A DNA stretch of 64,000 nt. It comes from Alphaproteobacteria bacterium (GTDB lineage: Bacteria; Pseudomonadota; Alphaproteobacteria; CAAHEQ01; UBA3637). Shown here in pieces: positions 3,360 through 9,338 of this stretch. The stretch spans positions 55,869 to 119,868 of the forward strand of contig JAZRDB010000012.1 in the NCBI GenBank assembly GCA_045660045.1, read 5' to 3'. Under the pieces are notes generated by a model. That model did not search any database. It was not told the origin of the DNA and worked only from the letters and a program-made list of their open reading frames with translations. Numbering within the stretch: the stretch's first letter is position 1; each line of letters starts with the position of its first letter. The position numbers and the translations under genes are program-made.

Positions 3360-3389
3360 TTGACATATGATATAGTTTATGATTATCAT
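3360..3389 (+). promoter_or_regulatory. candidate promoter of the Cys-rich operon (TTGACA 3360-3365, TATCAT 3384-3389)
   Basis: Consensus -35, 18-nt spacer, 5/6 match at -10. The TTG that opens the tracked ORF at 3360 is this -35 box. Confidence 0.4.
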
Positions 3390-3407
3390 GATTTCATGAG
3401 GTTTTTT

Positions 3408-4544
3408 ATGCGATCAAAAGTTATCTTTATTATGATTCTTTTGTTCTCTGCTTCCGTCTTTGCCTTTGGTGGTGGCGGCGGTGGCGGTGGCCGAGATCGT
3501 GTTCGCAAACAATATGGCATGAACTCTATGGGGATTTATACTGACCCAGATCACCCTATCGATCCTCCGATTTTTGGAGAATGTGACGATCCAAACGCAC
3601 ATTATAATGAACACGACCTATGTATATGCAACGATGGATATCAAAAAGAAGATACTATCTGCGTTATCAACGCTTGTCGTGATTTTGTTCCATCCGGTTG
3701 TCGCACAGAATGTTCTTCCTCGGGCGGCTCAGCATCATATACAGAATGTCACGGAACAGGAACCTGTGTAGGCAATGCATGTGAGTATGACGAACAACAT
3801 GATTGTAATCCGGCATGCGGTGTGTGCAAAAAATGTGACACATCCAATGGCATCTGCATTACCGATAGCGAACAAGAAGGTTTGACTTGCGCTGGTAAAT
3901 CTGTTTGTCAATCAGGAAGTTGTGTTTGTGATAGTGATAGAATCATTAACGGGAAAACCTGTTGTCCTGTTGGGACAAAACCAAACGCAGCCAAGGATGA
4001 GTGCGTTGTTGACACGGCAGAAAATTGCGACACAGGATATATATATAGTTATGATGACAACGCATGTATTCCTTGCGCAGCCGCAGATGGCAAGTCAACC
4101 CCATGGCTGGCTTGCCAACAATGTGGCATGATTTATTCTAAAAATAGAACTTGCCATAATCAACCAGCACCTGGCTTTATTGTAGATGATGCAAGAAACA
4201 CTTATGAGTGTGACTCTAATGTAGAAGCATTTGGGGTTCTGTCCAAAGAAATGTGTAACGTCTGTAAAGGTGTGCGTTTCTACGGCAAAAAAGGATCTAG
4301 ATATTATTGTGTTCGTTGTGACTATGGAGATGCTTATGAGCAGGGATTTATTGCACCACAAAATGAAGATTGTACAGGGGAATATGGATGTCCCGACAGG
4401 CGCGTAGTTGAGAATTCATTGTGCAAATGTGCAACAACCACAATAAAAGAAGAACGTTGGATGCCCAAGTGGGATAACACAACCCAACAATTTTTACCAC
4501 CCGTGAAGACAAACGTTACTATCTGTCCTGCGCCAGAACCTTAA
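3408..4544 (+). CDS. secreted cysteine-rich repeat protein, paralog 1 (signal peptide + Gly8 module)
   Basis: Start set at ATG 3408 (GAGG 6 nt upstream), by analogy with the paralogs. N-terminus MRSKVIFIMILLFSASVFA/FGGGGGGGGRDR. The rest is dense in Cys with CxxC and CxC spacing. Confidence 0.8.
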   Translation: MRSKVIFIMILLFSASVFAFGGGGGGGGRDRVRKQYGMNSMGIYTDPDHPIDPPIFGECDDPNAHYNEHDLCICNDGYQKEDTICVINACRDFVPSGCRTECSSSGGSASYTECHGTGTCVGNACEYDEQHDCNPACGVCKKCDTSNGICITDSEQEGLTCAGKSVCQSGSCVCDSDRIINGKTCCPVGTKPNAAKDECVVDTAENCDTGYIYSYDDNACIPCAAADGKSTPWLACQQCGMIYSKNRTCHNQPAPGFIVDDARNTYECDSNVEAFGVLSKEMCNVCKGVRFYGKKGSRYYCVRCDYGDAYEQGFIAPQNEDCTGEYGCPDRRVVENSLCKCATTTIKEERWMPKWDNTTQQFLPPVKTNVTICPAPEP

Positions 4545-4575
4545 CAATAACTAATACTACATTGGGAGAGGAAAA

Positions 4576-5487
4576 ATGAAACTTTTAAAAACATTATTTT
4601 GTTGTGCATCCATCGGAATGATTTCAGTGGCACAAGCACAATCTATGCAAGAATTGGATGTCTGTCAAAACCTTGTGTTAGAAGCTGAAACAGAATATGA
4701 TGTCACCACCTATGATGATTGTGGCTTTAATGATCTGCGCACAGCAATTGCTTATTGGGCACCATTGGCCGAACAAAACAAGTGGGGCAACGCCTTATAT
4801 GAAATTTACAAACGCCATGCCGATTATCCCAATATTAAACACTATCTTTACATGGCGGCCAAATTTGGCCAATCAAACTCTTTGGTCTTGGTGGGGCATG
4901 AATTGTTTGATCAGGGCAAAGTAGCCGAAGCTATGCGCTATTACAATGTGGCAATTCATGGTGACTTAGATGAAGAAACTCAAGGCGTTATTACGGGACG
5001 TTTGGCAATGCTCTATGTAAATCCGAACAGCCCGTACTATGATATTAACAAATCATTACCATTACTGCAAAAAGCCGCATTACAACGTCAAGCGCAACCA
5101 AACAATGTCTTGGGTGTGTTATCGTTGTTCGGGATGGGCGGTTTACCACAAAATGCGGAAGAATCTTTCAAATATTTTTGGCGGGCTATTTTGCTGGGTT
5201 GTCCTGCAGCCGAAGAAAACCTGGGATTTTTCTTGTTAGCAAAAGACAAAAAAATTAACAATGATACTTTGAAATCAGAACTGTTAGCGCGTGCTTATTC
5301 TTGTGATGCCGTTGCTCAGACAAGCACAGAATACCCACCTTATCATCTTACATTCAATCCACAACAATGCGCAGATTTAAATTATTATGCACAGCGATTA
5401 GTGGATACTTCCCTGCCCTTTACGGGAAAAGAGGAGTGTGCATTTAGCGCTGATATGAGTCAAATGGCCGATTATTTAAGTCAATAA
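4576..5487 (+). CDS. secreted Sel1-like (SLR/TPR-type) repeat protein
   Basis: Signal peptide MKLLKTLFCCASIGMISVAQA/QS. Repeats of the Sel1 type (A..YY..A...G...A...LA.LY, LGVLSLFGMGGLPQNAEESFKYFWRAILLGCPAAEENLGFFLL). Confidence 0.75.
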   Translation: MKLLKTLFCCASIGMISVAQAQSMQELDVCQNLVLEAETEYDVTTYDDCGFNDLRTAIAYWAPLAEQNKWGNALYEIYKRHADYPNIKHYLYMAAKFGQSNSLVLVGHELFDQGKVAEAMRYYNVAIHGDLDEETQGVITGRLAMLYVNPNSPYYDINKSLPLLQKAALQRQAQPNNVLGVLSLFGMGGLPQNAEESFKYFWRAILLGCPAAEENLGFFLLAKDKKINNDTLKSELLARAYSCDAVAQTSTEYPPYHLTFNPQQCADLNYYAQRLVDTSLPFTGKEECAFSADMSQMADYLSQ

Positions 5488-5618
5488 AAAATTTAAAAAG
5501 CAGAAAACGAGATGCGCAAATTTTTATTATTAAGTTCAATTTTTGTGGCAAGTACAGTCCTCGCCTTTGGTGGTGGCGGAGGTGGTGGTCGCACCCGTCG
5601 TTTTTATGAACGCCATGG
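5448..5618 (+). repeat. direct repeat copy 1: last 40 nt of the Sel1 gene + 24-nt spacer + first 107 nt of paralog 2
   Basis: Hand alignment to 8312-8482 shows about 6 mismatches in about 171 nt. Similarity decays after this point. Confidence 0.9.
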
Positions 5619-8259: not shown

Positions 8260-8311
8260 AATCCTTCAGAATGCCCAGCAGGAGTACCACGCAGACTATT
8301 ATGCATTATGT

Positions 8312-8482
8312 CGCTGATATGAGTCAAATGGCCGATTATTTAAGTCAATAAAAAATTTAAAAAGGAGAAAACAAGATGCGCAAATTTTTATTATTAAGTT
8401 CAATTTTTGTGGCAAGCACAGTCCTCGCCTTTGGTGGCGGCGGAGGTGGTGGTCGTACCCGTCATTTTTATGAACGCCATGG
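8312..8482 (+). repeat. direct repeat copy 2; its first 40 nt (8312-8351) are a relic of a Sel1-gene 3' end (..ADMSQMADYLSQ*)
   Basis: Near-identical to 5448-5618. There is no Sel1 gene body upstream of it, so the fragment is a duplication or deletion scar. Confidence 0.9.
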
Positions 8483-9278
8483 CGGTGTTGATGCAATCGG
8501 GATTCATATTGATGGTAAAGATAACAAACCCAATATAGATATCCGCACCTGCGATAGTGAAACCGAAGAGTTGGTTGGAACAGAATGTTTGCCAAAGTGT
8601 GCTGATGGGTTAGAAAGAAATACAGATGGTTCTTGTAGTGTATGTGCGGGTGAAAATGCGAATGTGTATCTATCGTATATGGATGACCCGTGCGGAACAG
8701 AAACACCGATGGATCCGCCATCATGCACAACAGATGGAGATTGTTGGAGTGGATGTTGTAATGGGATGATAAATTTATGTATGGCTTCAATATTTGCTGA
8801 CTATGGCATGACACGAATTTGTCCTAATACTGAGGCAAAGTTATGTAAGAGTAATCATGATTGCTCTGATGGAGAATTTTGTGCCATATACGGAGATGGA
8901 ATACCTAAGATAGGGAGCTGTATGCCTATAGAAATTGGAATGGAGTATACATGGAACAATACTAAGTTTTTATTAAGTCAAGGAGCAATGAGTTGGTGGA
9001 GCGCGGAAAATTGGTGTAAGGCCCAAGGAAGACAAATGGTTAAATTGGTTGATTTAGTAGATACGACTGGTTTACCAAAAACTTCATGGGGCCATTATGA
9101 GTGTGATGGAGCTGATTGCGAAAATATAGACTGGGATGCTTTGCAAAACACATTTGGTGATAATTCTTGGTGGACAGATGATATGAAAAACTCAAACAGC
9201 GCCCAGGTAATGTATGTGGGGGGCTTTTATGGGGAGACTAGACTTAACGATGCCGATTGCGCGGCTCTTTGTAAATAA
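8376..9278 (+). CDS. secreted cysteine-rich protein, paralog 3 (C-type-lectin-like C-terminal module)
   Basis: N-terminus MRKFLLLSSIFVASTVLA/FGGGGGGGRTRHFYERHGGVD, with RBS AAAGGAG. It shares the NVYLSY.DDPCGT, CKSN..C..G.FC and MSWWSAENWCKAQG modules with paralog 2. Confidence 0.85.
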   Translation: MRKFLLLSSIFVASTVLAFGGGGGGGRTRHFYERHGGVDAIGIHIDGKDNKPNIDIRTCDSETEELVGTECLPKCADGLERNTDGSCSVCAGENANVYLSYMDDPCGTETPMDPPSCTTDGDCWSGCCNGMINLCMASIFADYGMTRICPNTEAKLCKSNHDCSDGEFCAIYGDGIPKIGSCMPIEIGMEYTWNNTKFLLSQGAMSWWSAENWCKAQGRQMVKLVDLVDTTGLPKTSWGHYECDGADCENIDWDALQNTFGDNSWWTDDMKNSNSAQVMYVGGFYGETRLNDADCAALCK

Positions 9279-9307
9279 CACTAACCCACACCATAACTTG
9301 TAAATCA

Positions 9308-9338
9308 TTCCCCAATTCAAACGAATCGGGGAAATTTT
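9308..9338 (+). terminator. rho-independent terminator of the Cys-rich operon
   Basis: UUCCCCAAUU / AAUCGGGGAA stem (one mismatch), 6-nt loop, followed by AUUUUG. Confidence 0.55.

Follow-up and report, generated by a model that had tools for sequence, protein, structure and literature searches.

In a window of 64,000 nucleotides (nt) from contig JAZRDB010000012.1 of an alphaproteobacterium (positions 55,869 to 119,868 of the forward strand), four genes, called here A to D, lie between yidC and rpsF. Three of them (A, C, and D) probably encode Cys-rich proteins that are exported by the Sec pathway, folded oxidatively, and displayed or released; a C-type-lectin-like domain (CTLD) in C and D and a discoidin domain in C would bind ligands, likely glycans, with Cys-rich repeats as spacers. 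The CTLD-like module belongs to a large bacterial family. An exhaustive search with the module profile gave 601 representative clusters (clustered at 50% identity) at E ≤ 1e-3 and 238 at E ≤ 1e-10, and the proteins bearing the module range from ~200 to 6368 amino acids (aa), with up to 18–20 copies of it. The fourth gene, B, is by sequence a divergent Sel1-repeat protein. The four genes are the following (arrows mark predicted cleavage sites).

3408-4544, + strand: gene A, 378 aa, 9.9% Cys; Sec signal peptide, AFGGGGGGGG leader, and Cys-rich body
4576-5487, + strand: gene B, 303 aa; signal peptide of its own (…SVAQA↓QS), Sel1-like repeats of divergent sequence, and a mature protein with 6 Cys
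5512-8259, + strand: gene C, 915 aa, 8.5% Cys
8376-9278, + strand: gene D, 300 aa, 7.0% Cys; leader, small Cys-rich subdomain, and CTLD-like module

All four are on the + strand and are separated by 31, 24, and 116 nt. The block is flanked by yidC and a gene for an EngB-type GTPase (− strand) on one side and by rpsF, rpsR, and rplI (+ strand) on the other. An earlier model-made account of this DNA, based on its letters alone (the sequence-only reading), had placed four open reading frames (ORFs) at these coordinates, on this strand and with these gaps; they are present as described, as are all the sequence motifs that it quoted. It had also described secreted, cysteine-rich proteins, and the proteins do look exported and disulfide-rich, with signal peptides present and Cys contents of 7.0%–9.9% in A, C, and D vs. 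0–3.5% in the other real ORFs of the window. A Gly run behind the signal peptide is found, among the ORFs of the window, only in A, C, and D.

The CTLD-like module of genes C and D

The module occurs once in each of the two genes.

6979-7554, + strand: CTLD-like module of C (aa 490-681), a Cys knot (C.SN.EC..G.YC…G.C) followed by WW.AE.WC.AQG … ALCE
8829-9275, + strand: CTLD-like module of D

In the family, the module is ~150 aa long, opens with a Cys knot (C..N.DC..G.YC…G.C), and has the core WW.AE.WC.AQG…ALC(E/K). The copy in C matches the family profile with E 1e-44. Between C and D, BLASTP aligns the N-termini (E 9e-24; the first ~55 residues are nearly identical) and the internal modules (E 6e-15, 29% identity). 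No match of the module at the sequence level was found in Pfam, NCBIfam, or the PDB (searched with profile A2), and Pfam Lectin_C (PF00059) does not match the isolated modules even at E ≤ 10.

The structure of D was modeled with AlphaFold2 (AF2) from an alignment of 64 sequences, with a predicted local distance difference test score (pLDDT) of 82.6 and a predicted template modeling score (pTM) of 0.77; the leader has low values (pLDDT 43–64). In the module, two strands are followed by a helix (207–216), a second helix (253–260), and four strands. Such an order of strands and helices is the topology of a compact CTLD. Cys214, in the first helix, and Cys299, in strand 295–299, are invariant in the 64 sequences and W266 is nearly so; the two Cys are placed as for the canonical CTLD disulfide (helix 1 to last strand), and W266 fits a WIGL-type strand. 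In a Foldseek search of the PDB with the D model, 50 of the 50 top matches belong to the CTLD superfamily, among them MGL, CD23, CD94/NKG2, Ly49, SP-A/D, PLA2R, the formylglycine-generating enzyme, and the C-terminal domain of Legionella Lcl (Lcl-CTD); the best E-value is 0.064, with none at E ≤ 0.001, and the TM-scores by target are 0.36–0.54. Against viral structures, nothing significant was found (a DUF1566 phage protein, E 0.26). From the model, the module likely has a CTLD-type fold.

The EPN/QPD and WND motifs for Ca and sugar are absent from the modules of C and D, which have the compact form without the long loop region. Judged on these motifs, the module is not a canonical Ca-dependent C-type lectin. 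The C-type-lectin assignment of the sequence-only reading is thus retained in part: only CTLD folds appear in the Foldseek top 50, but with E ≥ 0.064 and with neither a PF00059 match nor Ca/sugar motifs. The closest fold matches of D are animal CTLDs (MGL, CD23, CD94/NKG2, Ly49, SP-D) together with the CTLD of intimin/invasin. Presumably, the W..A...C helix, the WT.D strand (resembling WIGL(T/S)D), and the last …LC(E/K) strand are motifs common to the animal CTLDs and the module. The module differs from them, beyond the lack of a Lectin_C match, long loop, and EPN/QPD and WND motifs, in its extra N-terminal Cys knot. In homologs, this Cys knot weakly matches a myxococcal Cys-rich repeat (TIGR04201), whereas the window proteins themselves stay below threshold for TIGR04201 and for DUF5874.

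The C-type-lectin fold is the usual scaffold of the variable proteins of diversity-generating retroelements (DGRs), and D carries its CTLD-like fold at the C-terminal end, as would suit hypervariable DGR targets. That C and D are such targets is extremely improbable: No template/variable repeat pair anywhere in the 64-kb window touches the 3′ parts of the modules, and there is no ORF resembling a reverse transcriptase in 1-13000. The candidate was rejected on the absence of template/variable repeats in the window.

The discoidin domain and the Cys-rich regions of gene C

Protein C consists, in order, of the leader, Cys-rich repeats, a discoidin domain, a Cys-rich linker, the CTLD-like module, and a Cys-rich C-terminal stalk. 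Besides the module, three regions were delimited.

5665-6219, + strand: N-terminal Cys-rich repeats of C
6313-6639, + strand: discoidin / F5/8 type C (CBM32-like) domain of C; Pfam envelope aa 268-376, conserved block aa 236-395
7552-8256, + strand: C-terminal Cys-rich region of C (aa 681-915), which starts with a second copy of CPTGYTGDGCTEC

The discoidin domain, proposed in the sequence-only reading, is recognized by two Pfam models, each above its gathering score: PF22633 (F5_F8_type_C_2; E 1.8e-9, 38.5 bits vs. 27.8) and PF00754 (F5_F8_type_C; E 6.6e-8, 33.2 bits vs. 28.2). A profile of four sequences (A7) finds in the PDB a factor-V-like C domain (4bxs; E 1.1e-3) and a Clostridium CBM32 (4lks; E 2.6e-3), with neuropilin and factor V C2 weaker, while a search of the PDB with the single sequence gave only a nanobody artifact. 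The domain (aa 268–376, within Pfam membership) is therefore of the type found in the discoidin/CBM32 domains of gut glycoside hydrolases (PDB 4lks) and in NedA-like galactose-binding domains (PF22633); the difference is that, in C, it is set among Cys-rich repeats and not joined to an enzyme. Its close relatives are only P0002 and P0005 (homologous proteins are numbered P and loci L), both with the pilin-type N-terminus described below.

The N-terminal repeats include two 46-aa units (5777-5868 and 5915-6006) with the pattern C.CD..YYG..SC.LC..GK..N..C.CD that are 80% identical. With phmmer, the 46-aa repeat is matched in P0003, P0006–P0010, and P0146. The homologous repeat is Pfam DUF5874 in P0006 and scores as EGF in P0013 (E 4.9e-5), so that the repeats of C are homologous to those of DUF5874-bearing proteins; on C itself, the repeats have no Pfam match at E ≤ 10. 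An EGF-like nature of the C repeats is a hint only, drawn from these homologs. At the other end of the protein, the C-terminal region (aa 681–915) is modeled by AF2 as an elongated β-hairpin stalk (pLDDT 75, pTM 0.44). Foldseek gave no significant match for the stalk, only a mixture of TNFR, furin-like, EGF, and viral fiber-shaft structures (E ≥ 0.08, probability ≤ 0.25), and a word-indexed homology search found one homolog of the region.

On the Cys-rich segments, the Pfam models for EGF, laminin, and furin-like repeats stay below cut-off (Furin-like_2, E 0.15; EGF_laminin, E 4.9; TNFR_ELAPOR1 on the C stalk, E 0.025). At E ≤ 10, the isolated segments and modules show sub-threshold Pfam matches only, including Fer4, Dickkopf_N, and CarbpepA_inh, and NCBIfam has no match on A, B, C, or D. 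For the EGF, laminin-EGF, or furin-like repeats of the sequence-only reading, the window proteins offer sub-threshold hints and nothing stronger.

That reading had seen in these patterns an adhesin, lectin, or host-mimicry cassette with eukaryote-like modules. On the mimicry view, eukaryote-derived EGF, laminin-EGF, furin-like, discoidin, and C-type lectin modules, acquired to imitate or engage proteins of the host, would form one accessory operon with the Sel1 protein. In gut and intracellular bacteria, Sel1 proteins often act on the host, the discoidin domain of C is confirmed, the repeats of P0013 score as EGF, and animal C-type lectins and NK receptors are the best structural matches of the module. 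We give such mimicry little credence all the same. The module is that of a large family of bacterial proteins, which start with a pilin-like N-terminus or a bacterial leader; on the window proteins, the models for EGF, laminin, and furin-like repeats stay below threshold and the stalk has no significant fold match; Lectin_C and the Ca/sugar motifs are missing; and, as described below, the GC content equals that of the flanks and the relatives do not share the gene set as a whole.

Leader and pilin-like N-termini

The N-terminus of A, C, and D is a Sec signal of the classical n-h-c type that runs to …A↓FGG; a conserved tag of ~25 aa follows. The same leader (Sec signal ending in A↓FGG, Gly-rich run, basic S/T-rich stretch, and GVDAIGVH(I/F).G) is found in 56 of 151 module proteins. 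A second, pilin-like N-terminus (…GRSMVEMLGVLAIIGVLS…AMNKHRAN…) is present in 51 of the 151; its sole NCBIfam matches are prepilin models, all below threshold. A class III signal peptide (G↓xxxxE and a hydrophobic helix) occurs neither in A, C, and D nor in any other ORF of the window, but is present in the pilin-type sister proteins.

The two N-termini carry closely related cargo. For 15 module copies, the nearest relative bears the other N-terminus, with identities of up to 72%, 57%, and 51%. The cargo of D is 42% identical to that of the pilin-type P0042 (E 5e-41). Both types also occur on one contig, L081.

There are further variants in the family. In P0069, P0086, and P0029, a lipobox-like (A/G)FSCG stands in place of AFGG, with GVD(A/S)IGV(H/Y) kept, which hints that the mature N-terminus sits at a membrane. 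P0017 (6368 aa) and P0018 (4335 aa) have a pilin-like N-terminus and 13–20 copies of the CTLD-like module, which suggests fiber-like arrays. In more distant gut relatives, pilin-type proteins of 715–730 aa with 9%–11.5% Cys are encoded near yidC (L017 533-2722, L019 17840-19984, and L020 12286-14475); these contain tandem units of ~50 aa, without the CTLD-like module.

The leader-type proteins could instead stay in the cell, in the periplasm or tethered to a membrane, and bind the cell's own glycans or peptidoglycan or act as a scaffold. A Sec signal is the only export signal evident, and neither a partner gene nor a secretion system is adjacent; some variants of the leader are of the lipoprotein type; and B, periplasmic or exported too, adjoins. 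We consider residence in the envelope unlikely, since the type IV pilin-like N-termini on closely related cargo suggest display outside the cell, and the multi-copy versions of up to 6368 aa look fiber-like. Discoidin/CBM32 and CTLD modules are, moreover, typical of extracellular binding proteins (PMC11162425).

Distribution of the family

The nearest relatives of the YidC of the window are from metagenome-assembled genomes (MAGs) labeled Alphaproteobacteria bacterium, from goat abomasum (81%), other ruminant gut compartments, human gut, and rabbit. Free-living Rhodospirillales (Thalassospira and Magnetospirillum) come next, with YidC at 40%–45%. The view that the organism is host-associated is borne out by this gut and rumen MAG lineage. 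Across 84 loci, each examined over 10 kb to either side of yidC, ORFs of the module, leader, and pilin types are found in the gut lineage only and in none of the free-living outgroups. The sequence-only reading would have been weakened by homologs common in free-living relatives; within 10 kb of yidC, there are none. By these loci, the module family is so far known from uncultured gut and rumen Alphaproteobacteria only.

Elsewhere, family genes are single genes among housekeeping genes, such as P0004 after lon and P0043 after rplQ. P0072 lies beside dksA-glgX-glgB, in a region syntenic with the window. In L082, two pilin-type family genes (10001-11152 and 16845-18146) flank dksA, RNHCP, glgX, and glgB, in the same order as in the window (11281-16349), and a gene for a 2128-aa autotransporter is nearby.

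Genes A and B

Gene A contains no recognizable domain (Pfam and NCBIfam) and no CTLD-like module. Its match to C is limited to the leader and a short Cys-rich stretch (E 0.004–0.007). A word-indexed search of 5.8e9 proteins gave a single homolog, P0016, in which an A-like N-terminal half is joined to a module of the C/D type; because P0016 links the two, A is placed in the same family as C and D. The sequence-only reading had counted A, C, and D as three paralogs. This is clear for C and D from the BLASTP values above, while A, with its match restricted to leader and short Cys-rich stretch, is tied to them through P0016. L001 encodes a positional ortholog of A, of ~1000 aa, with yidC on one side and the B homolog on the other. 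A C-terminal tail (W.P.WD..T..FLPP…ICP.PE) is common to gene A (4440-4541) and the L001 ortholog (6935-7030).

In gene B, the Pfam Sel1 model (PF08238) matches one stretch below cut-off (16.4 bits vs. 30.7; E 0.014). With phmmer, the top four PDB matches are all Sel1-like repeat (SLR) proteins (E 4.9e-6 to 4e-4), and three repeat-length stretches of B align to 8sxq. The Sel1 assignment made earlier is therefore upheld by the PDB matches but not by Pfam. The best PDB matches of B are bacterial SLR proteins, of Oxalobacter formigenes (6ok3/6ork) and of E. coli CFT073 (c5321, 4bwr), and B shares with the Hcp-type SLR proteins a signal peptide and paired cysteines. Other SLR proteins are Hcp of Helicobacter and LpnE and EnhC of Legionella. 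Unlike these bacterial SLR proteins, B scores under the Pfam Sel1 cut-off, is without an NCBIfam match, and is confined to the closest relatives: Of the loci compared, L001 and L002 have a B-like ORF, in the same place, and the other 80 have none.

Sel1/TPR-type solenoids commonly bind extended peptides, and B might be a dedicated partner of A, C, and D that recognizes their extended GVDAIGVH leader as a chaperone, dock, or regulator; this would account for the clustering of the genes. B adjoins both A and C, at distances of 31 and 24 nt, which fits such a role, as does the unstructured leader in the D model. It is nevertheless quite unlikely: B homologs are restricted to the two closest relatives, one of which (L002) has no Cys-rich neighbor, and the leader-type P0004 and P0043 have no Sel1 neighbor. 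As a universal partner of the family, B was rejected on these gene neighborhoods. A functional link of B to the Cys-rich genes is possible, but nothing in the data indicates it.

Growth of the locus

A direct repeat of 225 nt connects the B/C junction with the start of D.

5448-5672, + strand: 225-nt direct repeat, reference copy; last 40 nt of B, 24-nt gap, and first 161 nt of C
8312-8536, + strand: 225-nt direct repeat, second copy (89%); 8312-8375 is a remnant of the B end (40 nt) and of the B–C gap, followed by the first 161 nt of D

Because the 64 nt on the 5′ side of D repeat the end of B and the B–C gap, the 5′ end of D is a duplicate of the junction between the end of B and the start of C. 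The two closest relatives have fewer of the four genes. In L002 (YidC 70%), only B lies between yidC and rpsF, without a Cys-rich neighbor; in L001 (YidC 81%), the ~1000-aa A ortholog and B are present, without C and D. Read from these sequences, B has been at the locus longest, the Cys-rich genes joined later and vary, and the array grew by insertion and tandem duplication. The four genes, taken as one cassette in the sequence-only reading, are thus not conserved as a unit, with B alone in L002, A and B in L001, and family members solo elsewhere.

In L004 (3-620; a UBA3637 MAG), an ORF that runs off the contig ends with a D-like module (…MSWWAADNWCKAHDMKLV…ALCE). It ends ~120 nt on the 5′ side of yidC and is on yidC's own strand, an arrangement of strands unlike that in the window. 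The neighborhood of yidC seems to be a recurrent insertion spot of the family. The GC content of the four-gene block (0.39–0.45) is the same as that of the flanks, and on this ground recent horizontal transfer, as judged by composition, was rejected.

Transcription signals

The following signals are predicted around the block.

3360-3389, + strand: promoter-like site, TTGACA-18-TATCAT (11/12), 19 nt on the 5′ side of the start of gene A
3398-3401, + strand: ribosome-binding site of gene A, GAGG
9298-9342, + strand: terminator-like hairpin, with inner stem 9308-9333, then AUUUUG
9350-9378, + strand: extended −10 promoter-like site, TTGCAT-17-TGgTATAAT, on the 3′ side of the hairpin and the 5′ side of rpsF

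The site at 3360-3389, noted previously, is the top promoter-like match within 3000-9600; in the same interval, 23 promoter-like sites were found vs. 18.6 expected from shuffles, which is no excess. The terminator noted at 9308-9338 is not caught by a simple terminator scan and was detected by folding: In 9279-9350, the hairpin 9298-9342 has a free energy of −17.4 kcal/mol (z −5.4), and 0 of 200 shuffles are as stable. In the three intergenic gaps between A and D, folding shows no structure beyond that of shuffles. A single transcription unit from A to D is plausible: The genes share a strand, the gaps are short and free of hairpins, and one strong promoter-like site and one terminator-like hairpin stand at the two ends of the block.

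Between the promoter-like site at 9350-9378 and rpsF, there is a leader of ~118 nt with a GC-rich hairpin at 9400-9418, which the scan lists as terminator-like. The region 9350-9496 has no Rfam match. It could be an autoregulatory S6/S18 leader.

Other features of the window

The sequence-only reading had taken the block as the sole accessory part of the window, which is not the case: Several other ORFs are without a Pfam match.

35375-36097, − strand; 36427-37167, + strand; and 40531-41655, − strand: ORFs of 240-374 aa, no Pfam match at E ≤ 0.001
59439-60500, − strand: ORF of 353 aa, no Pfam match; weakly like aminoglycoside phosphotransferase kinase folds

Given the first three, the Cys-rich block is not the only stretch of the window that resists annotation. 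The fourth, which resembles PDB 3ham and 3uzr (E about 8e-4), is another non-housekeeping gene. A direct repeat of 118 nt, 92% identical (46445-46562 and 47133-47250), brackets an ORF of 177 aa without a Pfam match (46600-47133, − strand), which is situated between a 335-aa ORF (end at 46437) and a small ferredoxin-like ORF (47312-47548). A small insertion, or duplication of a regulatory region, might explain the repeat-flanked stretch 46445-47250. For the window as a whole, Rfam and tRNA scans gave no matches.

Proposed function

We propose that A, C, and D act at the cell surface as adhesin-like, ligand-binding proteins. They would be exported by Sec and cleaved behind the conserved A of …A↓FGG, as the −3/−1 pattern indicates. 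The body, with 7%–10% Cys, would then fold oxidatively in the periplasm. The mature N-terminus (FGG and Gly run, basic S/T-rich stretch, and GVDAIGVH) may serve as a tether or sorting tag; this role is suggested by the interchange with pilin modules, by the lipoprotein variants, and by the low confidence of the leader model, the pLDDT values of 43–64 fitting a segment that requires a partner. The CTLD-like modules of C and D and the discoidin/CBM32-like domain of C would, by analogy, bind ligands, most plausibly glycans, whether on mucus, the host, feed particles, or other cells, with the Cys-rich repeats as putative rigid spacers. The discoidin domain is identified by its Pfam scores and the CTLD at the level of the fold, while the ligands are predicted by analogy.

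Several points weigh against this proposal. No outer-membrane route is seen for the leader-type proteins, and no conserved neighbor at the family loci suggests one. The role of the leader as a tag is a prediction, for a segment modeled at low confidence. The CTLD assignment is based on sub-threshold Foldseek scores, with no Lectin_C or PDB sequence match, and, with EPN/QPD and WND absent, glycan binding by the module is an analogy. Expression, localization, and binding of A, C, and D are likewise predicted from sequence, in an uncultured organism.

CTLD-type adhesin heads, discoidin/CBM32 modules, Sel1 proteins, and modular pilins are all familiar kinds of parts. Some type IV pilins are modular and present adhesive and lectin modules (PMC8179133, PMC9934059). 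In Streptococcus sanguinis, PilB (vWA) and PilC (lectin) carry a binding module behind an N-terminal display device (PMC8179133, PMC9934059), and the sister proteins P0042, P0072, and P0005 carry C/D cargo behind a pilin-like N-terminus and a pilin-sized globular part. In contrast, neither a class III signal nor a pilin module is present in A, C, and D; they have a Sec signal and the ~25-aa tag, and their Cys-rich cargo does not correspond to any described pilin module.

Lcl is a secreted CTLD/DUF1566 adhesin that is tethered N-terminally and binds glycosaminoglycans with a head that lacks Ca motifs (PMC11162425). Its C-terminal domain (PDB 8q4e) is a compact CTLD-type domain without Ca/carbohydrate motifs, as the module of D likely is, and lies at the C-terminal end of a surface-attached adhesin for host glycans (PMC11162425); it appears among the fold matches of the D model at rank 40 (E 0.48). 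On the other hand, Lcl-CTD lacks disulfides, trimerizes on a collagen stalk, and is a substrate of type II secretion (PMC11162425). There is no sequence similarity between the two, and the window modules have no DUF1566 match in Pfam.

The conserved tag A↓FGG…GVDAIGVH(I/F)xG might be a new sorting or assembly signal, interchangeable with the N-terminal module of type IV pilins. We hold this as a doubtful but conceivable extension of the proposal; the tag could act by β-strand docking on a fiber or on an outer-membrane partner. If it were true, the family would mark an undescribed surface-display pathway, and the Cys knot with the compact CTLD would be a new ligand-binding domain family. In the libraries searched, the module family, the leader, and their pairing appear undescribed. 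The leader is, in any case, a concrete and testable question of protein sorting.

As probably exported, ligand-binding proteins, A, C, and D open a view of bacteria that are almost unstudied, the uncultured Alphaproteobacteria of animal and human guts, in which a disulfide-rich family of ~600 clusters with lectin-type domains is exposed. The locus itself is a small and clear example of the growth of an array by junction duplication beside housekeeping operons. If the proteins are adhesins, they would be candidates for attachment to mucus, feed particles, or partners, and the idea of the modular pilin would extend to Cys-rich CTLD cargo in diderms.

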